Translations under genes and position numbers: made by a program | Notes under the pieces: model-generated | Database searches by the model: none | Told to the model about the DNA's origin: nothing | Seen by the model: the letters and a program-made list of their open reading frames with translations, nothing else | In this document: one piece after another, positions 4,448 through 62,469 of the stretch | How the letters are laid out: each line of letters starts with the position of its first letter | Numbering within the stretch: position 1 is the first letter of the stretch | Assembly (NCBI GenBank): GCA_964410465.1 | Contig: CAYPGJ010000005.1 | Span: forward strand, 17,275 to 81,274 | Source of the DNA: an uncultured Phycisphaeraceae bacterium | GTDB taxonomy: Bacteria > Planctomycetota > Phycisphaerae > Phycisphaerales > UBA1924 | Reading direction: 5' to 3' | Length of the DNA: 64,000 bases

Positions 4448-5110
4448 TCAGACGGGCATGGGCACGGGAGCGCGGTCGGTGATGAGCTCGGCCTCGGTGA
4501 CCTTCTTCACGTCATCGACGGAAACGCCGGGCGCGAGCTCGGTGAGTCGGAAGCGGCGCTTCTCGGCGTCGAGCTCGAGGGTGCAAAGATCGGTGATGAT
4601 CATGTGGACGCAGCGCAGTCCGGTGAGGGGGAGGGTGCACTGCCTGAGGATCTTGGGTCGATCGCCCTTGGCGGTGTGCTCCATGGCGACGATGACGCGT
4701 TTGACGCCGGCGACGAGGTCCATGGCGCCGCCCATGCCCTTGACCATCTTGCCGGGGATCATCCAGTTGGCGAGGTCCCCTTCCTGGGAGACCTGCATCG
4801 CGCCGAGGATGGCCATGTCGATGTGTCCGCCGCGGATCATCTCGAAGGATTGAGAGGAGGAGAAGAAGGAGGCGCCCTTGACGGCGGTGATGGTTTGTTT
4901 GCCGGCGTTGATGAGGTCTGCGTCGACGTGCGTTTCGGTGGGGAAGGGGCCGATGCCGAGAAGGCCGTTCTCGGATTGGAGCCAGACCTCCATGCCGTCG
5001 GGAATGTAGTTGGCGATGAGGGTGGGAAGGCCGATGCCGAGGTTGACGACGAAGCCGTCGCGGAGTTCACGAGCGGCGCGCTGGGCGATCTGTTCGCGTG
5101 TGAGGGGCAT
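4448..5110 (-). CDS. scoB: 3-oxoacid CoA-transferase subunit B
   Basis: 220 aa. VNLGIGLP...SENGLLGIG is typical of family I CoA-transferase beta subunits. Confidence 0.9.
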
Positions 5111-8188: not shown

Positions 8189-10843
8189 GTGCCGGAGCCG
8201 CGGGCGATCGACGAGGGCGTGCGAGCGGGCGAGACCACGCGTGATGCGCCGTCGCCGCCTGGGGAGCGGCGCGTGCGTGTGTGGCGCGTGGCCCGTGCGA
8301 GCGTCCCGATCGTCGTGCCGGTGATCGTCGTGTGGGCGGTGTGGCGGAGCATCGGCGGGATCGACTTCCGGGAAACACGCCGCATCCTGGAGAACGCGCA
8401 GGGCGCGTGGCTCGGGTGGTCGGTGCTCGCGGCGTTTTGTGCGGTCGTCAGCATGGGGGCCTACGACGCGTTTGCGTTCCCCGACAAGCCCGGGCTGTCA
8501 CGCGGCGCGCGCTGGCGCATCGGGTCCGTCGTCTTTGCCTGGACCAACTTCCTGACGCTCGGGCCGTTCGGCGGGCCGGCCCTGCGGCTGTTCCTGTACC
8601 GGCGGTCCGGGATGTCCACGGAGGACGTGCTTCGCGGGGTCGCGCTCATCCTCGTTTCTTCGGCGTGCGCCCTGGTGGGCTGGGTGACTGCGTCGAGTCT
8701 CCCGCTCGGCGACACTCGCCTGGACGTGGTCGCGCGGATCGTGCTGGCCGCGCTGCTGAGCCCGGCGCTGGCGGAGGTGGCGGGACGTCTGGCCGGGCTG
8801 ATCATGCCGCGACGGTGGACGGCGCCGCCGCGGTGGGTGATGGCGCGCCTGGGTTGCGTGAGCGTGGTGGAGTGGGGGTTTTCGGCGGTGACGTTCGCGC
8901 TTGCCGGGCGCGCGGTGGGCGTGATGGCGCCGCTGGCGGAGAGCGCGCGGGCGATGCTGCTTGGGCAGGCGGTGGGTCTGATCAGCATGACGCCGGGCGG
9001 GCTTGGGAGCGCGGACGCGGTGTGGGTGTCGTTGCTGTCGCACGCGGGGGTCAGCGAGGAGGTTGCGGCGGCGCAAGCCGTGGCGTTCCGGCTGACGTTC
9101 TATCTGGCGCCGTGGGCGGGGTCGTTGCTCGCGCTGTACGCCATGTTCACGCGCGGACGGGGGCGCGCGGCGGAGTGGCAGCGGCGGATCGTCGCGGGCG
9201 CGGTGGGGCTCAACGCGGCGATCCTTCTGCTGAGCGCGGCGACGCCGGCGGTGCGCGGCCGGCTCGAGCGGGTGGCGGACTGGACCCCGGTGGGGGTGAT
9301 CGAGGCGTCACACCTCGCGGCCGCGGGCGCCGCGATGGTGATGCTCTTCCTGGTGCGCGGGCTGCTGCGCGGATATCGCTCGGCGATGCTGATCACGGGG
9401 GTTGCGCTCGGGGCGTCGGCGCTCGCGCACGTGTTCAAGGGTGGCGACTACGAGGAGGCGATCGCATCGGCGGTGTTGCTGGTGCTCGTGTTCGGCGCAC
9501 GGTCGGCGTTCCGCAAGACGGGGCGCGTGCCGGTGGGGTGGGAGCTGACGCTGGCGGTGGGTGTTGGCGCGATCGCGGCCTACCTCATCGTGGGCCTGGC
9601 CTCGCTGCAGCGTCTTCCGACGGATCCGTCACGCTGGCTGCACGTGGCGCCGCTGGCGCAGGGGGCGCGGTTCGTTCGCGCGGCGTTCGTGCTCGCGCTC
9701 GTGTGCGGGCTGTTCGTGCTGCGCCAGAGCCTCCGCTCGGGCGAACCCAAGCGGCACGCGGGCGGCGGCGAGATCGAGCGGGCGAGCCGGTTCATCGCGG
9801 CTCACGCGCCGCGCGCGACGCTGCTGAGCGTCGCCAACGCGGACAAGGCCGTGTGGTGGTGGGAGGGCGGCGGGCTCGCGGTGTATCAGACGCAGGGGGA
9901 TCGGATGATCGTGCTCGGAGACCCCGTCGTGGCGCGCCGGGGGGACGAGGGCGTCGCCCTGGGCGCACTGCACGACTATGCCACGAGCGAGGGCGTCGAC
10001 CTGCTGTTCTACCAGGCGAGCGCGCCCTGGCTGGAGCACCTGCACGAGTTTGGCTACTCGTTCTTCAAGCTGGGCGAAGAGGCGGTCGTGCCGCTGCAGG
10101 GATTCACGCTCGAGGGCGGGGCGTGGAAGAACATGCGCAAGGCGGTGCGGAAGGCGGAGAGCGAGGGCGTGCGCATCGAGATCCACGAGCCGTCGCACAC
10201 GCACGCGCTGCTGCGCGCGCTGGGGGACGTGAGCGACGCGTGGCTCGCGGGCAAGGGCGGGAGGGAGATGCAGTTCTCGGCCGGGTATTTCTCGTTCGTG
10301 TACCTGGATCGCTTCCCGCTGGGCGTGGCGCGCGACGGGCAGGGACGCGCGATCGCGTTCGTGAACCTGATGCCGACACGCCCCGGCGGTCCGGTGACCA
10401 TCGACCTCATGCGACGGCGCCCGGACGCGCCGGAGGGGACGATGGAGGCGTTGCTGACCGAGTCGATGCGATGGGCCGCGGAACGCGGCTACCGCGTGTT
10501 CGAGCTGGGCATGGCGCCGCTGGCGGACGTGGGGCAGCAGAAGTCGGCGCGCCTCACGGAGCGGACGGCGCGCCTGATGTACGCGCACGGCGAGCGGGTG
10601 TACGGGTATCGGGGGCTGCGCCTGTTCAAGGAGAAGTTCCACCCGGTGTGGGAGGCGCGATATCTCGCGTATCCGAGGCCTTGGGACTGGGCCGCGGCCG
10701 TGGCGGCGACGACGACGCTCGTGCGCGCCGGTTCGCGCGCGGATCGTCGTCGGATTGCCCTCGCTCGGTCGGGTGGGAGCGGACTGCTCGGTGACGAGGG
10801 AAGCTCGGAAGGATCGGGCGGACCGGGCGGTCCGGGGGCGTAG
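8189..10843 (+). CDS. mprF: Bifunctional lysyl-phosphatidylglycerol flippase/synthetase (MprF family)
   Basis: 884 aa with an N-terminal polytopic flippase-like domain and a C-terminal aminoacyl-PG synthase (DUF2156) domain. The start is a non-ATG codon and the exact start is uncertain. Confidence 0.8.
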   Translation: MPEPRAIDEGVRAGETTRDAPSPPGERRVRVWRVARASVPIVVPVIVVWAVWRSIGGIDFRETRRILENAQGAWLGWSVLAAFCAVVSMGAYDAFAFPDKPGLSRGARWRIGSVVFAWTNFLTLGPFGGPALRLFLYRRSGMSTEDVLRGVALILVSSACALVGWVTASSLPLGDTRLDVVARIVLAALLSPALAEVAGRLAGLIMPRRWTAPPRWVMARLGCVSVVEWGFSAVTFALAGRAVGVMAPLAESARAMLLGQAVGLISMTPGGLGSADAVWVSLLSHAGVSEEVAAAQAVAFRLTFYLAPWAGSLLALYAMFTRGRGRAAEWQRRIVAGAVGLNAAILLLSAATPAVRGRLERVADWTPVGVIEASHLAAAGAAMVMLFLVRGLLRGYRSAMLITGVALGASALAHVFKGGDYEEAIASAVLLVLVFGARSAFRKTGRVPVGWELTLAVGVGAIAAYLIVGLASLQRLPTDPSRWLHVAPLAQGARFVRAAFVLALVCGLFVLRQSLRSGEPKRHAGGGEIERASRFIAAHAPRATLLSVANADKAVWWWEGGGLAVYQTQGDRMIVLGDPVVARRGDEGVALGALHDYATSEGVDLLFYQASAPWLEHLHEFGYSFFKLGEEAVVPLQGFTLEGGAWKNMRKAVRKAESEGVRIEIHEPSHTHALLRALGDVSDAWLAGKGGREMQFSAGYFSFVYLDRFPLGVARDGQGRAIAFVNLMPTRPGGPVTIDLMRRRPDAPEGTMEALLTESMRWAAERGYRVFELGMAPLADVGQQKSARLTERTARLMYAHGERVYGYRGLRLFKEKFHPVWEARYLAYPRPWDWAAAVAATTTLVRAGSRADRRRIALARSGGSGLLGDEGSSEGSGGPGGPGA

Positions 10844-18473: not shown

Positions 18474-18923
18474 GTGCTCTTCACCGGTCAATACGAGCAC
18501 GTGATCGACGCCAAGCAGCGCTTGGCGATTCCAGCGGACATCCGTTCCCGATGGCGTCCCGAGTCCGATGGGCTCGCGTGGTTTGCGGTGCCCTGGCCAG
18601 GCGGCGTCATCCGGCTCTACACCGAGTCGCGCTTCAATGCGCTCGCGGAATCTCGATCCCAGACGCTGACTCCCGACGAGGACGAAGCGGAAATCCAGGC
18701 GTCTCTGTTCGGCCTCTCTCGACGCGTCGAGATGGACTCCGCCGGACGCATCCGGTTGCCGGAGGACATGTTGCAGCTTGCCGGGGTGGGCGGGGAAGTG
18801 GCGTTGATCGGCGCCGGGGATCGGCTGGAAATACGCGATCGGGGCGCTTGGCAGGCTTCGATGGCGCAACGGCTCGCCTCACTTCCCGGGCTGATCGCCC
18901 GCAAGGCGAAGCACGGGGGATGA
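18474..18923 (+). CDS. mraZ: Transcriptional regulator MraZ
   Basis: 149 aa with a GTG start. Two SpoVT/AbrB-like halves carry DxKQR (DAKQRLAIP) and DSAGRIRLP motifs. Confidence 0.9.
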   Translation: MLFTGQYEHVIDAKQRLAIPADIRSRWRPESDGLAWFAVPWPGGVIRLYTESRFNALAESRSQTLTPDEDEAEIQASLFGLSRRVEMDSAGRIRLPEDMLQLAGVGGEVALIGAGDRLEIRDRGAWQASMAQRLASLPGLIARKAKHGG

Positions 18924-19347
18924 ACGACCTGCGACGCCGCGGAGACGCGGTGGAGCGGATTCACGGACGATCGCCCGCGCCTGCGGGCCGCAGCAAGGAC
19001 CGCTGCAATCTGTAACAGGGCGCTCGGCAAGGCACGACGCCGACCCGACGCCCGAGACGTACCCCCCGACGCGACGACGCAAGGAAGCGGGTCGCACCGA
19101 AAAGGCCCTGGACGCTCTTCGGCGCACGGACGCGACGAGAAGCCAAAGCCAGGACCGGCACACGCCAGACCCCGCGCCTGGCGTGGCCCTCGGGATCATC
19201 GGGGTTGACGCCTCCCCCCGTCGCGCCGGCTCTCACCGAGACGGTGCGGCCTTCGATCTCGCGTCGCGATTGCCGCAATCGGAGCGGCGGCATTCGCGTC
19301 GCCGGGATGAGAGAGAGGGAATGAGGGCATTCAACCCCCCACCCCTT

Positions 19348-27539: not shown

Positions 27540-27582
27540 GGGGCAGAGAGTGTAATCGCCCGCGAACATCCGGTGCGCGGAC

Positions 27583-29091
27583 TCAATCCGCGCCCTCGCC
27601 CCCGGCCCGACGCGCCACCAGGTCCGCCAGGTGCTGTTTCGCCTCGCCGACGATGTAGAAGGAGCCCGTCACGCAGATCAGATCCCCCCTCGACACCGCC
27701 CGCGCCGCCAGGTTCAGCGCGTCCGGCAGCGTCTCCGCCACCTGCGTCATCTTCCCCGACATCGCCACGAATCTGCGCTGCAGCTCCTTCGGGTCCGCCG
27801 CGCGAGGCGAGTTCGTCGCGCGCGTGAAGATCACCTTGTCCGCCCCCAGCGCCACCTTCGCCAGCATCCCATCGAGGTCCTTGTCCGCCGAGCACCCGAA
27901 GATCATCACCATCGAGTCGTACGGAACGTGCCCGCCGATCGCCTTGATCAGCGACGCGATCGAGTCCTCGTTGTGCGCCACGTCCAGCAGGATCCTGGGC
28001 TTGGTCCACGCCAGCTCCATCCGTCCGGGCACTCGCGTCCGCGCCAGCCCGCGCGCCACCGCCGGCTCCGGCGTCTCGAACCCCTTCTCGCGCAGCCGGT
28101 CGAGAATCGCCAGCGCCAACCCGCAGTTGTGAGCCTGGTGCTCGCCCGGCAGGGGCACCGCCAGATGCTCGAACCCCGTGCGCGACGACGCCACGCACAC
28201 CCGCCGATGCGGCCCGAGGTCCGGGCTCGCCTCGAAGCGGAACGAGAACTCGATGTCCTTGCCCAGCACCGCCAGCGGCGCGCCCGCGGCCTCCGCGCTC
28301 TGCCGCAGCGCCTCGAGCACCGGCTTGGGCTGATCCACCGTGATCGCGGGCACGCCCTTCTTGAAGATCCCGGCCTTCTCGCGCGCGATCTCCTCCGTCG
28401 TGTCGCCGAGGATCTGCGTGTGGTCCTTCCCGATGGCCGTGATCGCGCTGATCTCCGGCGTCACCACGTTCGTGCAGTCCAGCCGGCCGCCCAGCCCCAC
28501 CTCGAGCACCGCGATGTCGATGGCCTGCTCGGCAAACCGCAGGAACGCCACCGCCGTCATCAACTCAAAGAACGTGCACGGGCCGTGGCGAGTCTCCACC
28601 TTCTTGGCCGCGTCCGCCACGCGGTCCACCAGCCCAGCGAACTCACCCGTGGACATCATCGCGCCGTTCAGCAGCACGCGCTCGCGCACGTCCACCAGGT
28701 GCGGGCTTGTGTACAGACCGACCGTGTACCCGCACGCCTCCAGGCACGACGCGGTCATCGTCGCCACCGAGCCCTTCCCCTTCGTGCCCGCGATGTGCAC
28801 CGACCGGAATTCCTTGTGCGGATCGCCAAGGGCCTTCATCAGCGCGATCGTCCGGTCCAGCTTGAAGCGGTCGCGCATCTCGCGCGTCAGACGCATCCGC
28901 TCGATGTCCGGACGATCCGTCAGGAACGCCATCGCCTCCCCGAACGTCCTCCCGGAAGACTTCCGCGCGCGAGGCTTCCCCTCGCCCCGCTTCGGCTTGG
29001 TCGGTACCTTCTTCGAACCCGAACTCGATGCGGACTTCTTGCGAGCGGGGGCAGCGCCCCGCCCCGAAGCCGCGGATGTGCTCTTGGCCAT
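27583..29091 (-). CDS. folC: Folylpolyglutamate synthase / dihydrofolate synthase
   Basis: Has the Mur-ligase P-loop HIAGTKGKGS, plus a basic N-terminal extension. Confidence 0.9.
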   Translation of the reverse strand: MAKSTSAASGRGAAPARKKSASSSGSKKVPTKPKRGEGKPRARKSSGRTFGEAMAFLTDRPDIERMRLTREMRDRFKLDRTIALMKALGDPHKEFRSVHIAGTKGKGSVATMTASCLEACGYTVGLYTSPHLVDVRERVLLNGAMMSTGEFAGLVDRVADAAKKVETRHGPCTFFELMTAVAFLRFAEQAIDIAVLEVGLGGRLDCTNVVTPEISAITAIGKDHTQILGDTTEEIAREKAGIFKKGVPAITVDQPKPVLEALRQSAEAAGAPLAVLGKDIEFSFRFEASPDLGPHRRVCVASSRTGFEHLAVPLPGEHQAHNCGLALAILDRLREKGFETPEPAVARGLARTRVPGRMELAWTKPRILLDVAHNEDSIASLIKAIGGHVPYDSMVMIFGCSADKDLDGMLAKVALGADKVIFTRATNSPRAADPKELQRRFVAMSGKMTQVAETLPDALNLAARAVSRGDLICVTGSFYIVGEAKQHLADLVARRAGGEGAD

Positions 29092-31581: not shown

Positions 31582-31599
31582 GTGCTACACTGGGGCTGA

Positions 31600-31682
31600 C
31601 AAACGCTCGGGGCGCCCTCCAGAGAGGGCTGAGAAGCACCCGTGGAACCTGATCCGGCTCGTACCGGCGGAGGGAAAGCGAG
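31600..31682 (+). promoter_or_regulatory. TPP (THI-box) riboswitch
   Basis: CGCUCGGGGCGCCCUCCAGAGAGGGCUGAGAAGCACCCGUGGAACCUGAUCCGGCUCGUACCGGCGGAGGGAAAGCG matches the conserved TPP aptamer core. Compare E. coli thiM as recalled: CUCGGGGUGCCC..GGCUGAGA..ACCC..ACCUGAUCUGGAUAAUGCCAGCGUAGGGAAG. It ends 3 nt before the ATG at 31683. Confidence 0.85.
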
Positions 31683-32177
31683 ATGACGTCGGACCCCATC
31701 GAGATCCTTTTGGCGCACCATGACTGGGCGAACCGCACGCTCATCGAGCGGTGTAAGTCGTTGTCGCCAGAGCAGTTTCATCAAAAGCTCGAGCTGGGTC
31801 GGGGGTCATTGCACGACACGATCGTGCACGTGATCTCTGCCGCGAGCGCGTGGACGAACATGCTGATGGAGCGGCCGTTTGAGAAGAGGCTGGAGGGCGA
31901 TCCGGCGCGCACGGCCGAGGAGATCCTGACGCTTCACGGGCAGACACAGGAGGCGCTGGCGATCGCGGCTCGCGCTAAGCCCTTGACGGACATCGCCCAA
32001 GGCGAGCGCGCGGGGCGGAAATATTCTTTTACGAGAGGCGGGGTTTTGTTGCATGTGTTCACGCACGCGATGCACCACCGTGCGCAAGCGTTGAACATGT
32101 TGAGGCAGTTGGGGGACGAGGCGCCGCCGGACGTGTCGGTGCTGGTGTGGATGCTCACGAAGGACACAACCGCCTGA
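31683..32177 (+). CDS. DinB family protein (paralogue 2), immediately downstream of TPP riboswitch
   Basis: Contains [16 protein letters not shown]...EQFH...[18 protein letters not shown]. It is clearly paralogous to 31012..31581. Confidence 0.75.
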
Positions 32178-56705: not shown

Positions 56706-57041
56706 TCAGGCCCGTCGCTGCAACCGACCGTTGGGCACAACGACGACCTCCGGGGCGTCCTCGTCGAGGGATCGTTGCATGAGGCGTCCGACCTTGAACT
56801 TGACGACCCTGCGCGCCGGGACTTTGACGCGTTCGAGGGTTCGAGGGTTCTGCGCCACCCGCTCGGCGCGCAACTTGATCTCGAACACGCCGAAGTCGCG
56901 CAGCTCGAGACGGTTGCCCTTTCCCAGCTCCTCGATGACTTGATCGAGGAATGACTGGATCGTTCGCTTGACTTCGACCCGGCTCTGGTTGGTGGATTCT
57001 GCGATCCTCTCAACCAGCTCGCGCTTCGTAACGGTCGCCAT
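56706..57041 (-). CDS. HU/IHF family DNA-binding protein
   Basis: Contains [14 protein letters not shown]....V...I..FLD.I.E.L..G..LELRDFG.F......R.A.NPRT...V.VP....V.FK.G. Confidence 0.85.
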
Positions 57042-57265
57042 CGGCGCACCCTTCCGTGTCACGACTGCTCACCCGCGTCCCAGCGACCGTACTTGCCGCG
57101 GCAAACACACGCGCTCGCTTTGACGCTCTCGCTTCGCGGACTTCCGTGTCCCGCACTACATACAACCAGTATCCGACTCGGCGCGACTCAGGTCAACGCC
57201 GAACGCGCGCACACGCGCGCAGATTCCGTGTTGGCGCGCAGCGCGCACACGGAGGACATTTCGGT

Positions 57266-57592
57266 TCAGTAGGACCGACCCCAGCGCGACCAGATGGCTG
57301 GCAGACGCCAATACTCCGGGTCTCGCGCGTAAGTTGGCCACGTTACGCCAACGAGTCGTGAATCTCCGCCGGCTGAAACCTGCTCGTCGTTGCGCGCGTA
57401 TTCCCACGCTTCCCAAAGCGGACGTCGCGCATCGTCCGTGACGAGCGCGGGCGAAAAAATCAGCGAGCTGCCTGCGCTGGCGCGCGTGGGGGTGTCGTGG
57501 AGCGTGACGCGGTCGGACGCGCACGCCGCGAGCGCGATGGGCGCGACTGCGCAAAGCACGCACGTTTTGAATCGTCTCCCGCTCTCTCGCAT
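57266..57592 (-). CDS. Small lipoprotein, unknown function
   Basis: Begins MRESGRRFKTCVLCAVAPIALAAC with a lipobox. ATG at 57592. Confidence 0.4.
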   Translation of the reverse strand: MRESGRRFKTCVLCAVAPIALAACASDRVTLHDTPTRASAGSSLIFSPALVTDDARRPLWEAWEYARNDEQVSAGGDSRLVGVTWPTYARDPEYWRLPAIWSRWGRSY

Positions 57593-57750
57593 GTCTCTCA
57601 CCGCGTACACGCCGAAACAAAGCCCGTGCCGAGGGCTGTTCCGTGCCCGTACGCCCGGAGAGGCGGTCCCTCGCCTGTCCGTGTGTTGCGCGTGGTCAAC
57701 ACGAGTGTGTCGCGAACGCAACATGTTCGCGTTCCAGACCGACTGTCGAA

Positions 57751-58164
57751 TGCGCCCGAGAGGACTCGAACCTCTGACCTGCGGTTTCAGCCACCCGCCG
57801 ATTCCTCGACGGACCGGACCATCTCTTCGTCCGTGCCGCAGACGCTGACGCGTCGTTGTGCAGGACGCCGGGCGCTTCGGAGGACGCGTCGCTCTGGACG
57901 CGGGGCCTCCTACGCGGGGGTATCGCCGGGGCGGCTCACCCGCTGGTCTCTACACCTTCCGACGGCAGTGGGATTGGGACCCACGCCCCGCCGTCGGCTC
58001 GGCTCGGGATCGCCCCGCACGCGTTGATGGCGTGCGTCGGGGTTCCCCGAATTCACCCGGTTCGCCACGACCCGTCACCGGGCCGGGCCCCTCTTCTTCT
58101 CGCCGGCTCGCGCCGGCGGGGATCCAAAGGAAACCGCCGCTCTATCCAGCTGAGCTACGAGCGC
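57751..58164 (-). tRNA. tRNA-Arg(CCU) gene interrupted by an intron in the anticodon loop
   Basis: Exon 1 (58164-58128) is GCGCUCGUAGCUCAGCUGGAUAGAGCGGCGGUUUCCU. Exon 2 (57787-57751) is AAACCGCAGGUCAGAGGUUCGAGUCCUCUCGGGCGCA. Joined, they give a canonical 74-nt cloverleaf with a 7-bp acceptor, GCUC/GAGC D-stem, GCGGU/ACCGC anticodon stem, AGAGG/CCUCU T-stem and UUCGAGU T-loop. Acceptor and D-arm are almost identical to E. coli tRNA-Arg(CCG) as recalled. No CCA is encoded. Confidence 0.85.
57788..58127 (-). other. Group I (IC3-like) intron within tRNA-Arg(CCU)
   Basis: 340 nt with no ORF. The 5' exon ends in U and the intron ends in G. It contains GAAUUCGGGGAACCCC and GGAAGGUGUAGAGACCAGCGGG, closely resembling the AAAUUCGGCGAAACC and GAAGGUGUAGAGACUAGACGG core of the Azoarcus tRNA-Ile IC3 intron as I recall it. 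Confidence 0.7.
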
Positions 58165-58275
58165 TCGAACCGTGGGCATCCTATCCGCTCCGTACGCGGC
58201 ACGTTCCTCGGCGAGTCGTCGCGTGGTGTTCTCCCCACCGCGGTCTCCCCCCTACTACAGTCTCCCCCGACCCTC

Positions 58276-61200
58276 ATGCCTCGCCCCGCACGACGAGCCT
58301 CGCGACCCTTCTCCCACAAGCGGCTGCGCCTGGCCATTCTTTCGCTTGCTCTTCTGGCGTCCCTGATCCTGTTCCTCCAGCTCACGCTGCTTCCGACGCT
58401 GCTGCGCGGGCCGCTCGAGCACGCGCTGGGGGGCTCGGTGCGCATCACGCGGGTCTCGTTCTCGCCGGCGCCGGCGGTGATCGTCCACAACCCGCGGGTC
58501 ATCGCGCCCGGCATCCCCAGTGACGCGTCGCGCATTCTTCGCGCGGACGCGGTGCGCATCGAGCTTGACGGGTCCGATCTCCTTCACGGGCGGCTGACGC
58601 CGACGCGCATCGTGCTGGAGGCGCCGATCCTGCGGATTTCGCAGCACGCCCAGACGGGCGCGATCAATCTCGCCTCGCTCTCGCCGCATGCCCCCGCGCC
58701 CGCGGCGGCGTCCGGGACGTCGGCGCGGATCCCCGCGATCGAGATTCATGGCGGGGCGATCGAGCTCGCGGAGCACTCGGATCAGCCCCACTACGAGCCG
58801 TTCCTGACGCTTCCGATCGAGGGGGTCGCCACGCCGGACCCGAACAACCCTGCCCGGTGCGCGTTCACGCTGCGCTCTCGTCCCCGGCACGCCCCGCCGT
58901 CGGCGGCGGCGGCGACGATCGCGGGGTTTTTCGATGCGTCCTCGCTTTCGGCGGAGCTTGCGCTGTCCGACCTGACCTTTGACGACTTCGCCGACCTGTG
59001 GACCGCGGAGCGAACGTCCGCGCTGTGGTCGCAGCTGGACATCGCGGGGCGGATTCCGACGGCGACGCTCTCCTATGCGCCCGAAACGGGCCCTGTGGCC
59101 ACCTTCGTCCTCGAGCGCGTGGGAATCAATCTTCCGGTTCCCGAGCAGACGCAGGGCGTCTCCACGCCCGCGGATCTGGGATCGATCACGGCGGACACGT
59201 CGGTCGCGACGGCGCCGGCGCGGCTGCTTCGGATGAACAACGTTTCGGGGCAGATCTCGGTGGTCGGCGAGTCGCTGCGGGCCGACCTGGTGGGCTCGAT
59301 CGAGGACGTGCGGTGTCGCGCGCTGCTTTCGACCAAGGCGCTGTCGTTCAACGCGCCGTTCCGGCTCGACCTGTCGACGGCGGAGCCGTTCTCGCTGCGT
59401 CAGCGCGCGGCGATCCTGCCGTTTGCGCCGCCGATCGTGCGCGAGCGGCTCCGGACGTTTTCCGGCCCGACCGCCGTGGTCGATGCGCAGGTGCTGATCA
59501 CGCGCGGCGAGCCGCCGGCGGGCGTCGCTGCGGCGCCGCTGGCGTATTCGGGGCTGCTGACGTTCCGGGACGGGCGCGCCGCGTTCGAGGACTTCCCGTA
59601 CCCGTTCTCGAAGCTGTCCGGGGTGGTTCGGTTCAACGACGCGGAGATCCGGATCGAGAAGATCACGGGCGTGCATCCGTCCGGCGCCAAGCTGCTGGCC
59701 GAGGGGCGGATCGCTCCGCCGACGGATGACGCGGAGGTTGATCTGCGGATCACGGCCGTGGACGTCCCGCTCGACGCGGAGTTCGCGTCGTGCCTGCCGA
59801 TCTACGCGCAGCCGCTGATCGACACGGTGTTCGACACGGAGGCGCTCGATCAGCTGCGGGCGTTGAACCTGCTCCCGTCGGGCTCGGGGTTTGCGCTCGC
59901 AGGCCGGGCCGATCTCGACATTCACGTGATCCGTCCGCTGGGCGTCGACACGGAGTGGACGTCGGACATCCTTCTGCGGACCGAGCGCGCCGGGGTGCTT
60001 GTGCGGGCGTTTCCGCTGCCGGCGATCGCGGAGGACGTCTCGTTGTCGATCCGTGACAACCGCGCGACGCTCTCGGCGCCGGTGATGCGTCCGCTGGCGG
60101 GCGGGACGGCGGCGCTCAACGCGTCGATTCTCTTTTCGTCGGATCCTTCGCAGCCTCCCGTGCAGCCCACCATCACGATCGCGGCTCGCGAGGTTCCGCT
60201 GGACGGCTTGCTCCTGCACGCCGTGGACGCCTCTTCCGGCGGCGCGCCCGGCGCGAGCTCGCCGACGGCCATACTTCGCCGCCTCAACCTCGAGGGTCTC
60301 CTCGACGCGGACGCGTCCATCACTCCGGATCAGACGGCTCCCGAGGGCGTTCAGTACGACATCGCGCTTGAGTTTCGCGCACTCGCCTCACGCCCCGCGG
60401 CGTTCGCCGGGGCGGGCGCGTGCACGCTGGCGGATATCGCGGGCTCGGCGCGGCTCACGCCGCTCCGGTTCTCCGTTCCGCGTCTCGAGGGACGGATCCT
60501 GGCGCCGGACGCGCGTGACGCGGGCCGGTTCTCGGTTTCGCTGACGTCCGAGCGCGCTCGGCACACGGACACAGAGCGGGAGTTCTTGGCGGAGATCATC
60601 GCGACGAACGTCGAGCTCGGCGCCCCGCTCGAATCGGTCCTCGCCGCGGTGGCGCCCGAGGAAGCGTCGAGAGCGCTGGACCTCCGCGCAGCTCGCGATC
60701 CGAGGGGTCGCGTCGATGCGTCGATCTCGCTCCGGTCCGCCCCGGACAAGCAGGGCGTGGCCGTCTCGGCGCGTCTTTCGGCCGCGCGAGAGCTGTCGTT
60801 TCTCACGCCGGTGGGACGGATCGCGGCGACGTCAGCGAAGGGCGGCGCGGTGATTGACGACGCGGCGGTGCGGTTCGACGGGCTGGGCGGGACGCTCGCG
60901 CTGGACAGCGCGCCGCTCGGTGACATCACGCTGCACGGAGCCCTTTCGATTCAGCCGTCGGAGCCCTCGGATCTTGCCCTGTCGTTCTCTTCGCAAGCCC
61001 TGCCGCCCGCCACGTTGCACAGGCTGATCGATGCGTTTGCGGAGGAGCCGGTTGAGCTCGCGGGGCTGCGGCTCGGCGCGTCGTTCGACCTGAACGCGTC
61101 GGTGACGAGGGCGACGCGATCCGGCTCCTTCAGCGCGGACGTCGTGGTGAAGCCTCGGTCGATCACCGTCGAGACGGCCGACCATTCGACGATCCACTTC

Positions 61201-62469
61201 CCGGCCGCGTCTGGCGCGCTCACCTCGCGCGCCGGCGCGCTCGCGTTCGACCAGCTCTCCGTCCGATCGCCGGAGCTGTCCGTGACGGTGCAGGGCGTCG
61301 TCGACCCGGTGTCCGGCCCGGACCTCCGGTTCACGGCGAGCGCGCCGAACCTCTCGGCGCCGCTGCTCGCGCTCCTTCCCCCGAACGTTCGGACCGCGCT
61401 CGCGGGCATCGAGCTTTCGATCAGCGGGCCCATCACGGTCACGGAGGCGCGCCTGACGGGGTCGTTGCCCTCGCCGGATTCGCCGCTGGTCTTCACGGCC
61501 GACGCGGAGTTTGCGGACGCATCGGCCGAGGTCGGCCTGACGCTGTCCGAGGCTCATGGGGTCCTGCACCTCGACGCCGCGCCCCCGCTCGCCGACATCC
61601 GAGTGGACGTGCGCACGATGTCCGTTTCGGGTCTGTCGCTCGAGAACGCGACGGCCGTGCTTCACATCGATTCGACGTCCCACAGCGTGCTCGTCGATCA
61701 GGCGCGCGCCGATTGCCATGCCGGGCAGATCGCCGCGGAGGTGAGCATCTACCCTTCGGCCGCCGGGGAGCCGGAGTCGCCGGTGCGATATGACGCGGGC
61801 ATCTCGTTGTACGGCGTCGCGTTCGGTCCGGCGCTGGCGGAGATCCGACAGCGATGGAACGCCCCGGACGCCCCGGACGCCCCGGACGCCCCGGGCACGG
61901 CGCCGACAGGAACGACCACGACGGAGGCGCGGGCCGTGTCGAGCGCCAACGCTGCGGGTGACCGGGGTCTTCTCGACGCGCAGCTCTCGCTGAGCGGGAG
62001 TCTCGCGGACCCATCGTCGCGCGTGGGCCGCGGTTCGATCCGAGTCTCACAAGGGCGCATCGTTTCGCTTCCGCTTCTGAACCGGCTGATCGAGCTCTCG
62101 AACCTTTCGCTGCCGTTCAACTCACCGCTCGACAGCGCGTACGCCCGGTTCTTCCTGCGAGGGCGGCGGGTCACGTTCGAGCGCCTGAGCCTGTCCTCGG
62201 ACGCTGTGACGCTCGTGGGGCAGGGCAACCTGACCTATCCGGACATGAACCTCGACCTGCGGTTTACGTCGCGCGGCAATCTCCGCATCCCCCTGATCTC
62301 CGACCTTCTCGAGGCCATCCGCAACGAGATCATCACCACGACGGTCACCGGTCCGCTCGCGTCCCCGGACGTGTCTCCGGCCGCGTTCACGGGCACGCGG
62401 GACCTGCTCGACGACCTCTTCTCTGAGCCGTCCCCGCCCGAAGCGCCTACCCTCCGCCCCGACCGATGA
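58276..62469 (+). CDS. Large AsmA/TamB/YhdP-like membrane-anchored protein
   Basis: ~1397 aa from MPRPARRASRPFSHKRLRLAILSLALLASLILFL (ATG at 58276, N-terminal TM). It is long and beta-rich, with an AsmA-like C-terminal region (FFLRGRRVTFERLSLSSDAVTLVGQGNL). The listed start at 57856 would run through the tRNA gene. Confidence 0.75.
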   Translation: MPRPARRASRPFSHKRLRLAILSLALLASLILFLQLTLLPTLLRGPLEHALGGSVRITRVSFSPAPAVIVHNPRVIAPGIPSDASRILRADAVRIELDGSDLLHGRLTPTRIVLEAPILRISQHAQTGAINLASLSPHAPAPAAASGTSARIPAIEIHGGAIELAEHSDQPHYEPFLTLPIEGVATPDPNNPARCAFTLRSRPRHAPPSAAAATIAGFFDASSLSAELALSDLTFDDFADLWTAERTSALWSQLDIAGRIPTATLSYAPETGPVATFVLERVGINLPVPEQTQGVSTPADLGSITADTSVATAPARLLRMNNVSGQISVVGESLRADLVGSIEDVRCRALLSTKALSFNAPFRLDLSTAEPFSLRQRAAILPFAPPIVRERLRTFSGPTAVVDAQVLITRGEPPAGVAAAPLAYSGLLTFRDGRAAFEDFPYPFSKLSGVVRFNDAEIRIEKITGVHPSGAKLLAEGRIAPPTDDAEVDLRITAVDVPLDAEFASCLPIYAQPLIDTVFDTEALDQLRALNLLPSGSGFALAGRADLDIHVIRPLGVDTEWTSDILLRTERAGVLVRAFPLPAIAEDVSLSIRDNRATLSAPVMRPLAGGTAALNASILFSSDPSQPPVQPTITIAAREVPLDGLLLHAVDASSGGAPGASSPTAILRRLNLEGLLDADASITPDQTAPEGVQYDIALEFRALASRPAAFAGAGACTLADIAGSARLTPLRFSVPRLEGRILAPDARDAGRFSVSLTSERARHTDTEREFLAEIIATNVELGAPLESVLAAVAPEEASRALDLRAARDPRGRVDASISLRSAPDKQGVAVSARLSAARELSFLTPVGRIAATSAKGGAVIDDAAVRFDGLGGTLALDSAPLGDITLHGALSIQPSEPSDLALSFSSQALPPATLHRLIDAFAEEPVELAGLRLGASFDLNASVTRATRSGSFSADVVVKPRSITVETADHSTIHFPAASGALTSRAGALAFDQLSVRSPELSVTVQGVVDPVSGPDLRFTASAPNLSAPLLALLPPNVRTALAGIELSISGPITVTEARLTGSLPSPDSPLVFTADAEFADASAEVGLTLSEAHGVLHLDAAPPLADIRVDVRTMSVSGLSLENATAVLHIDSTSHSVLVDQARADCHAGQIAAEVSIYPSAAGEPESPVRYDAGISLYGVAFGPALAEIRQRWNAPDAPDAPDAPGTAPTGTTTTEARAVSSANAAGDRGLLDAQLSLSGSLADPSSRVGRGSIRVSQGRIVSLPLLNRLIELSNLSLPFNSPLDSAYARFFLRGRRVTFERLSLSSDAVTLVGQGNLTYPDMNLDLRFTSRGNLRIPLISDLLEAIRNEIITTTVTGPLASPDVSPAAFTGTRDLLDDLFSEPSPPEAPTLRPDR

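Follow-up and report, generated by a model that had tools for sequence, protein, structure and literature searches.

A probable group I intron with an IC3-like core and a P7.1/P7.2 domain in the tRNA-Arg(CCU) gene of an uncultured Phycisphaeraceae bacterium

The stretch of DNA analysed here (hereafter the window) comprises 64,000 nucleotides (nt) of contig CAYPGJ010000005.1 from the GenBank assembly GCA_964410465.1 of an uncultured Phycisphaeraceae bacterium. Its minus strand carries, between 57751 and 58164, the two halves of a 74-nt transfer RNA (tRNA) gene, tRNA-Arg(CCU), with 340 nt between them. The 5' exon (58164–58128, GCGCUCGUAGCUCAGCUGGAUAGAGCGGCGGUUUCCU) includes the 5' strand of the acceptor stem, the D arm, the 5' strand of the anticodon stem and the anticodon loop through U36, while the 3' exon (57787–57751, AAACCGCAGGUCAGAGGUUCGAGUCCUCUCGGGCGCA) extends from A37 to the discriminator base A73, CCA not being encoded. 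Both exons were recognised by reading the sequence, by ARAGORN and by covariation in the cloverleaf; when joined in silico into 74 nt they are identified by ARAGORN as tRNA-Arg(cct) with a perfect cloverleaf. The intervening sequence (58127–57788) begins with UUGGAUCC and its final letters are GGCUG, so that the last base of the 5' exon is U36 and the last base of the insert is G (57788). Its G+C content of 72% is close to that of the flanking DNA, and it contains neither open reading frames (ORFs) nor terminal repeats. We suggest that very probably this tRNA-Arg(CCU) gene is functional and the 340-nt insert between U36 and A37 is a group I intron without an ORF, an assignment supported by a profile match and by covariation within a family of related introns. 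Below, intron position i corresponds to window coordinate 58128 - i, and all the intron elements lie on the minus strand.

The profile search was based on the curated Stockholm alignment of Williams (2020), which comprises 26 bacterial group I introns from tRNA and transfer-messenger RNA genes with their consensus structure and includes no member of the window-intron family. With this 26-sequence seed, nhmmer produced a single match in the window on both strands (128 kb searched), located at 58066..57810 of the minus strand with E = 6.1e-13. The alignment covers P3, J3/4, P4, P5, P6, J6/7 and the 5' strand of P7 and, after an insertion of about 66 nt, continues with P3', P8, J8/7 and the 3' strand of P7. 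A hidden Markov model of the 20 seeds that lack the additional hairpins P7.1 and P7.2 recognises P3–P7 only (58063–57944, E = 9.6e-8) and breaks at the insert; the model of the four tRNA seeds which possess these hairpins gives one contiguous match (58063–57816, E = 2e-9). The minimum free energy fold of the intron alone has z = -1.97 and does not recover the group I fold.

Relatives of the window intron were found in genomes and metagenomes. The genome scan revealed a close homologue (L015) in a metagenome-assembled genome (MAG) labelled "uncultured Phycisphaeraceae", which has a 353-nt intron at the same site of the same tRNA. Scanning of metagenomes with GGTGTAGAGACCAGCGGG resulted in 37 loci, about 27 of them with the extended motif of the family. 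Of these loci, 21 were delimited as complete tRNA-Arg(CCU) genes, in which an intron of 292–356 nt follows U36. The MAFFT alignment (A1) comprises 20 distinct sequences, namely the window, one Phycisphaeraceae MAG and 18 metagenome contigs, and the intron position after U36 of tRNA-Arg(CCU) is identical in all 20.

Pairing was counted over this alignment for 76 proposed pairs, including the P7 pseudoknot; as controls, the 3' partner was slid by 1–3 columns and 500 shuffles were made. Standard pairs occupy 98.8% of the cells, compared with 36–52% in the slid controls, and compensatory changes occur in 20 pairs, compared with 2–7, while none of the 500 shuffles attains any of the observed measures. 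By helix, the compensatory pairs include five in P2, three in P6a, three in P8, five in P9, one in the P1 extension and one in the anticodon stem of the tRNA. The 13 distinct spliced tRNAs retain 98.9% of the cloverleaf pairs and have seven compensatory pairs; those which connect the two exons are 3-70, 6-67 and 27-43, located in the acceptor and anticodon stems. Such changes across the exons indicate that the two halves evolve as one tRNA, beyond chance.

The genomic surroundings of the relatives are similar as well. The gene order tRNA, HU, DeoC recurs in L125, L122/L152 and L015, DeoC being 72–82% identical, and the DUF748 gene located upstream of the tRNA is also present in L132, L144 and L152. 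This conserved order shows that the intron has been inherited vertically in related Phycisphaerae-like genomes, its locus being orthologous, and its preservation in spite of the DeoC divergence indicates that the intron is old and maintained. On the strength of the one labelled MAG (L015), the organism of the window is probably a planctomycete close to Phycisphaerae.

The topology of the group I core (P3-P4-P5-P6-P7-P3'-P8-P7', the P3/P7 pseudoknot and the joining segments J4/5, J6/7 and J8/7) was recovered by homology mapping onto the consensus structure of the seeds together with the pair counts. P1 is formed by the internal guide sequence (IGS) GAGGGG (intron 35–40, 58088–58093) with the exon bases UUCCU and the intron bases U1U2. 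Its pairs are U-1.G37, C-2-G38, C-3-G39, U-4.G40, U+1-A36 and U+2.G35, which places the wobble U36.G37 at the cleavage site. In the 20 sequences P1 is 100% paired and U36.G37 is invariant, while compatible variation occurs at -4/40 (U.G or U-A) and +2/35 (C-G, G-C or U.G). The alignment also shows an extra GNRA-capped hairpin in the P1 loop (GCCGGC-GCGA-GCCGGC, intron 11–26, 58102–58117), a counterpart of which is found among the relatives only in L125. P2 (intron 41–63, 58065–58087) has compensatory changes in five of its nine pairs and is capped by the GNRA tetraloop GUGA (L2, 58075–58078). L2 is of the GNRA type wherever P2 is a simple hairpin (17 family members), whereas L123, L131 and L133 have an extra branch of P2 there.

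The 5' strand of P3 (CCGGGUG, intron 68–74, 58054–58060) is followed by J3/4 (AAU) and pairs with the 3' strand CGCCCGG (intron 254–260, 57868–57874), which is included in the motif AGCGCCCGG and was placed by homology to the seeds. P3 is invariant in the family and covaries across the published seeds that possess P7.1 and P7.2: UCGGGUG/CGCCCGA, CUGGGUG/CGCCCAG and CUGGAUG/CGUCCAG correspond to CCGGGUG/CGCCCGG of the window. A first hand-made model, in which P3' was represented by CGGGUG right after P7, or P3 by two helices of three base pairs (bp), was dropped because the relatives and the published alignment place P3' at 57868–57874, beyond the two-hairpin insert. P4 (UCGGGG/UCCCGA, intron 78–83 with 119–124), J4/5 (AAC), the P5 hairpin (intron 87–115) and J5/4 (CGA) occupy 58004–58050 according to the nhmmer alignment and the pair counts. 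The next element, P6/P6a/P6b (intron 125–174, 57954–58003), contains the conserved internal loop GGGGC (57985–57989) and three P6a pairs with compensatory changes. The 5' strand of P7, GAGACCA (57944–57950; G178[A179]GACCA184 with A179 bulged), aligns with AGAGACUA and AUAGUCC of the published seeds and pairs with U307GGUCC312 (57816–57821). Judging from this alignment, G180 beside the bulged A179 would belong to the guanosine-binding G-C pair.

Between P7 and P3' two additional hairpins are located. P7.1 (intron 186–213, 57915–57942, CGGG-UGAG-GCC[GCCCC]GGC-GAUAC-CCCG) is recognised by its position and by the motif UGAG...AAUAA, as in the seeds Mba55.Phe.2Ug, Pam37.Asn.4Ug and Dba165.Lys.2Ug; its inner stem GCC/GGC is swapped to GGC/GCC in L126 and L147. 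P7.2 (intron 218–249, 57879–57910) is variable in sequence. P8 (intron 262–299, 57829–57866) shows compensatory changes in three of four basal pairs. The segments of P7.2 and P8 fold into one hairpin each in 20 of 20 members, their sequences being unrelated. J8/7 (GAAGAGA) with the 3' strand of P7 (UGGUCC), located at 57816–57828, matches the seed elements AUGAGAUAGUCC and AAGGGAUAGUCC.

The 3' end of the intron (57788–57815) was assigned by pairing and covariation. P9 (intron 316–333), with five of seven pairs showing compensatory changes, is capped by the GNRA loop GGAA (L9, 57802–57805). P9.0 is formed by G313 G314 (57814–57815) with C338 U339 (57789–57790) and precedes the terminal guanosine, omegaG, at intron position 340 (57788). 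All 21 introns end with G. In each of them P9.0 is paired, the combinations being GG/CC, GG/CU, GA/UC or AG/CU, and this covarying pairing fixes the 3' splice site.

All the core helices are thus placed, including the P1 wobble, P2–P9, P9.0 and omegaG. An earlier reading of the same DNA made from the letters alone (the sequence-only reading) had proposed two tRNA halves 340 nt apart with boundaries at U36 and the final G, and had left the junction provisional since no P1/IGS pairing was found; reading of the sequence and ARAGORN confirm these boundaries, and the junction is correct, the IGS being GAGGGG and the 3' site being defined by P9.0. The motifs it had quoted as resembling the Azoarcus intron, GAAUUCGGGGAACCCC and GGAAGGUGUAGAGACCAGCGGG, are present and agree with the published tRNA-Ile intron of Azoarcus olearius (AAAUUCGGCGAAACC; GAAGGUGUAGAGACUAGACGG). 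By its insertion in tRNA-Arg after position 36 and before position 37, and by the bases U at -1 and G at omega, the intron belongs to the class Arg.5Ug of Williams (2020). The core of the earlier interpretation, a group I intron of about 340 nt with an IC3-like core that divides a tRNA-Arg(CCU) gene after U36, is therefore upheld by the profile search, helix mapping, covariation and insertion site.

Several points weigh against a functional group I intron at this locus. The Rfam model RF00028 (Intron_gpI) gives no match at the gathering score in the whole window or at E <= 10 in a 901-nt slice, an outcome that the sequence-only reading, which proposed this search, had named as grounds for rejection. 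It carries little weight after the control search: of ten scanned loci assigned by eye to the tRNA group I introns on the basis of their cores, RF00028 detected one (L014) and missed nine. Moreover, Williams (2020) states that the RF00028 seed is devoid of bacterial sequences and that matches had to be accepted far below the threshold. For both reasons the negative Rfam result is uninformative, and the silence of RF00028 is a failure of model sensitivity rather than of a biological criterion. Further, P3, P4, P7 and the outer stem of P7.1 show no variation within the family. Covariation inside the family is consequently silent on them, and their support comes from homology and from the cross-family comparison with the seeds. 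Finally, no promoter-like site was detected by the sigma-70 consensus, other promoter types being outside that consensus. The sole local transcription signal detected is a terminator-like hairpin with a T-run on the minus strand (57637–57612), about 115 nt downstream of the tRNA, identified by a consensus match only.

Homology with known group I introns leads us to expect the standard two-step transesterification initiated by guanosine. The precursor tRNA would be transcribed from the minus strand, and the intron would fold so that P1 offers the U36.G37 wobble and the core is built from the stacks P4-P6 and P3-P7-P8, braced by the GNRA loops L2 and L9 and by the P7.1/P7.2 domain. Free guanosine bound at the G-C pair of P7 would attack the 5' splice site after U36; then G340, positioned by P9.0, would replace it there, and the 3' splice site would be attacked by the 3' OH of U36. 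Ligation of the exons would give the 74-nt tRNA, to which CCA is still to be added.

For the window intron, we infer transcription, catalytic activity and independence from protein cofactors. Alternatively, a group I-derived intron may have lost its autonomous catalysis, so that splicing would require a protein cofactor of the host or be too inefficient to be of consequence, with AGG codons read by tRNA-Arg(UCU) through wobble. Many group I introns need proteins in vivo, and here the 69-nt peripheral domain combined with long G+C-rich helices could make folding dependent on chaperones. In addition, L125 (JADMIO010796684.1, 1–340), the closest relative, with DeoC 82% identical and the extra P1-loop hairpin shared, deviates by a mismatched U x C in P3 (P3' CCCCCGG) and by GGGAGG instead of GGAAGG before P7, which represent either real drift or sequencing errors. 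However, conservation extends to all the core elements and to both GNRA loops, the exons still form a perfect tRNA, and P9.0 and P1 covary, as would be expected only if the selection of splice sites is itself under selection. We therefore regard this loss of autonomy as unlikely.

Much less probable is a decaying relic, i.e., a tRNA pseudogene with a dead intron. Decay does occur in the family: in L143 (JACADM010000164.1, minus strand, about 4500–5050) the acceptor and D arms are broken, P7.1 has a deletion and P3' has become CUGCCUGG, so this copy is either a pseudogene or a poor assembly. The window copy differs from it by the perfect cloverleaf and the intact core, and in the 20 sequences 98.8% of the pairs are kept through compensatory changes, in exons and intron alike, while DeoC is only 72–82% identical. 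The last alternative, in which the insert is not a group I intron at all (a mobile element, a protein-spliced intron of the bulge-helix-bulge type or a spacer between two unrelated tRNA-like halves), might draw on the silent Rfam model and on the ghost calls of ARAGORN intron mode elsewhere in the window, but it is effectively refuted by the covariation and by profile matches (E = 6e-13, 1e-7 and 2e-9) that lie exactly inside the insert, with nothing significant elsewhere in the window, as well as by the complete P1–P9 architecture with U-1.G and omegaG and by the lack of ORFs and terminal repeats.

A functional tRNA-Arg(CCU) gene with a group I intron thus remains the preferred interpretation, and its surroundings explain how such a gene may be overlooked. 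On the plus strand, an ORF at 57856..62469 overlaps the 5' exon together with the greater part of the intron. Its first start codon is located downstream of the 3' exon, which is barely beneath the open frame, as this begins only at 57778. The earlier description of a spurious 1537-aa ORF over both tRNA halves is therefore right for the 5' exon and most of the intron and wrong for the 3' exon; nor is this ORF wholly spurious, since it is a 5'-extended version of a DUF748-family gene. The Joint Genome Institute (JGI) gene call on an identical 109-kb metagenome contig (3300028830, Ga0310361_1598349) starts the DUF748-family gene at window position 58276, which places the split tRNA inside a 1.2-kb intergenic gap (57042–58275) between an HU-family gene (56706–57041, minus strand) and the DUF748 gene. 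The spacer of about 700 nt from the tRNA to the HU gene (57042–57750) has no gene call, no Rfam match and no similarity to the equivalent spacer of the relatives.

The suggestion that standard tRNA finders may miss or miscall this gene proved correct. By default ARAGORN miscalls 57751–57845 as tRNA-???, and in intron mode it finds the exact span c[57751,58164] with wrong junctions and a wrong anticodon-stem partner, resulting in tRNA-Ser(cga) with a 321-nt intron. A failure of this type is described by Williams (2020). Intron mode also reports four more "intron-containing tRNAs" in the window (8669–9512, 9668–10748, 18571–18991 and 27567–28067); since none of the four coincides with a group I profile match, they are probably ghost calls. 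With ARAGORN wrong in both modes, Rfam silent and a long ORF overlapping on the opposite strand, the tRNA-Arg(CCU) gene escapes standard annotation, and the genome would therefore seem to lack this tRNA. The window has one gathering-level Rfam match, a thiamine pyrophosphate (TPP) riboswitch (RF00059) at 31598–31693 of the plus strand (68.8 bits, the gathering score being 54.3; E = 2e-11).

The same region was met in three independent Logan assemblies, SRR10823761, SRR10823750 and SRR10823751 (loci L159, L160 and L163), with an identical DUF748/LOG region. Their contigs end at window positions 58130, 58130 and 58128, i.e., at C34 or U36, the 5' splice site, which suggests a branch of the assembly graph at the exon–intron junction. 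Such a branch could result from coexisting strains that differ in the P1-loop sequence or from an allele devoid of the intron. Among all the fetched loci no intron-less tRNA-Arg(CCU) allele was found; the one regex match (L052) is an intron-containing gene.

The distribution of such introns was approached by a scan of one genome per species with the core 14-mer GAAGGTGTAGAGAC, which resulted in at least 120 loci and provides no measure of frequency. Among the matches listed, most continue with the typical ...CUAGACGGGCAGCACCUAAGG and are located between tRNA halves; however, of the 120 loci listed only 70 have a profile match with E < 1e-3 and 50 have none, so the 14-mer is too unspecific. The profile-matched loci among those listed come from genomes and MAGs labelled Planctomycetota, Pirellula, Acidobacteriota, Saccharibacteria, Nitrospirae, Chloroflexota-like and many Proteobacteria. 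According to the 2020 survey, 5,292 tRNA group I introns occur in many bacterial phyla, Arg.5Ug being listed as classical. Together with our scan, this makes out of date the premise of the sequence-only reading that bacterial tRNA introns are confined mainly to cyanobacteria and a few proteobacteria, and with it the rarity argument. In the open literature searched, apart from the phylum table of the 2020 survey, we found no report of group I introns in tRNAs of Planctomycetes or Phycisphaerae, and that table may hold a prior detection.

Other intron types were observed in the same scan. In L007, L025 and L060 (Pirellula and Planctomycetia MAGs) a different group I intron occupies a tRNA with the anticodon CAU and, by exon reading, is located after U33; the insertion type "2Ug" (after U33) is listed by Williams (2020). 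Several types of tRNA introns are thus present in Planctomycetota. In L034, L066, L103 and L107 (Saccharibacteria and other candidate-phyla-radiation MAGs) a short GNRA-capped hairpin, e.g., AUCCC-GCAA-GGGAG, directly follows P7 and looks like a minimal insertion of the P7.1 type in another lineage.

A loop–loop pairing between P6 and P7.1 is possible in the window intron. The P6 internal loop GGGGC (intron 139–143, 57985–57989) is complementary over 5 bp to the P7.1 loop GCCCC (intron 196–200, 57928–57932). In L015 both loops are altered, to GGGAU and AUCCC, which gives two compensatory substitutions and represents a single independent event. Elsewhere in the family, U.G occurs at one position in five sequences, L126 has GCCCU and L122 has one mismatch. 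In the four published seeds with P7.1 and P7.2 the complementarity is not above chance: 179, 284 and 471 of 500 shuffles reach an equal value in three of them, and Mga42 has a GNRA-capped stem. We met no published description of such a tertiary contact, and no literature search was aimed at it. Based on these comparisons, one can tentatively suggest that the tRNA-Arg(CCU) intron of the Phycisphaerae type represents a lineage structurally separate from the proteobacterial Arg.5Ug, in which P7.1/P7.2 would be tied to an IC3-like core by the 5-bp P6 x L7.1 pairing; we consider this rather doubtful. If it is true, the same anticodon-loop site is occupied by two structurally distinct intron lineages.

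The presented data show that a Phycisphaerae-like lineage has a group I intron which is conserved and inherited vertically, and that introns with a peripheral P7.1/P7.2 domain can occupy the classical Arg.5 site. Neither result alters the understanding of how group I introns work: the window intron is a real instance of a catalogued intron kind and is unusual only in the extra two-hairpin domain. It could be a convenient model for studies of folding and structure, since this ribozyme is small, G+C-rich and ORF-less and about 20 natural variants are available.

The nearest known system by insertion site is the classical Arg.5Ug intron, which we take to be the Agrobacterium tumefaciens type. The group I intron database lists four classical types of bacterial tRNA introns, Arg.5Ug among them, and assigns all four to subgroup IC3. 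In our comparison Arg.5Ug was represented by the seeds Rur1 and Bbo3 and by the loci L019 (Phyllobacterium) and L002 (Bartonella). Classical Arg.5Ug and the window intron share the tRNA-Arg(CCU) host, the U36/A37 site, the U-1.G wobble, the pairing of exon CCU with GGG, omegaG, the GNRA loops on P2 and P9 and the lack of an ORF, and their P4-P6 and J6/7-P7 are nearly identical (AAxUCGGGGAA, AUCCCGAGCC.AG, GGAAGGUGUAGAGAC). In contrast to the window intron, the classical form has a 3-nt J7/3, no P7.1/P7.2, J8/7 of the type GAAGGGACAGUCC and a branched P9 region, and its P3 is CUGCUC/GGGCAG instead of CCGGGUG/CGCCCGG. Identity between them in the profile match columns is 0.53–0.58, which is no higher than for the introns of other tRNAs and is probably dominated by G+C content. 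Overall identity therefore discriminates neither between the classical form and the subclass with P7.1/P7.2 nor between descent from classical Arg.5Ug and an independent capture of the site. In the strict sense, IC3 implies a compact core with a short J7/3 and no P7.1/P7.2, whereas the window intron has a 69-nt two-hairpin insert between P7 and P3'.

Structurally, the window intron belongs to the subclass of seeds with P7.1 and P7.2 (Dba165.Lys.2Ug, Pam37.Asn.4Ug, Mba55.Phe.2Ug and Mga42.Leu.1Ug), all four signatures of which are found in it: P3 CNGGRUG with AAU, P7.1 with GAG...AAUAA, P3' within AGCGYCCRG and J8/7 A(U/A)GAGAU. Common to these seeds and the window are P3 CNGGRUG followed by AAUUC, P7.1 directly after P7, the (U)GAG...AAUAA-type motif, P3' in AGCGYCCRG and a simple P9 hairpin. 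J8/7 of the seeds is AUGAGAU(A/G)GUCC, and the window-intron family has both GAUGAGAUGGUCC and GAAGAGAUGGUCC. Unlike the window intron, the four seeds come from other tRNAs and from anticodon-loop positions 1, 2 or 4, and P7.2 is less developed in three of them. This subclass is already present in the seed alignment of Williams (2020), where it is neither named nor discussed, nor represented at the Arg.5 site.

The Azoarcus tRNA-Ile(CAU) IC3 intron (seed Aol6.Ile2.5Ug) resembles the window intron in that it follows the third anticodon base, as well as in the core motifs, the GNRA loops on P2 and P9 and the small size class. It differs by the absence of P7.1/P7.2, by the 3-bp IGS GUG and by CCUAAG...UAUGG in P5 and P8, presumably the 11-nt tetraloop-receptor motif, a sequence not seen in the window intron. 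Extra hairpins P7.1 and P7.2 between P7 and P3' are a feature of subgroup IA (phage Twort orf142-I2, T4 td and IStrons); according to the description of the Twort structure, they encircle the pocket that binds guanosine. The window intron is distinct from IA in its P3-P8 core sequence, the tetraloop arrangement of P2 and P9 and the tRNA host, all of which are IC3-like, and in having no P9.1/P9.2. Therefore, the window intron combines an IC3-like core with an IA-like P7.1/P7.2 peripheral domain and is not the classical proteobacterial form of Arg.5Ug.

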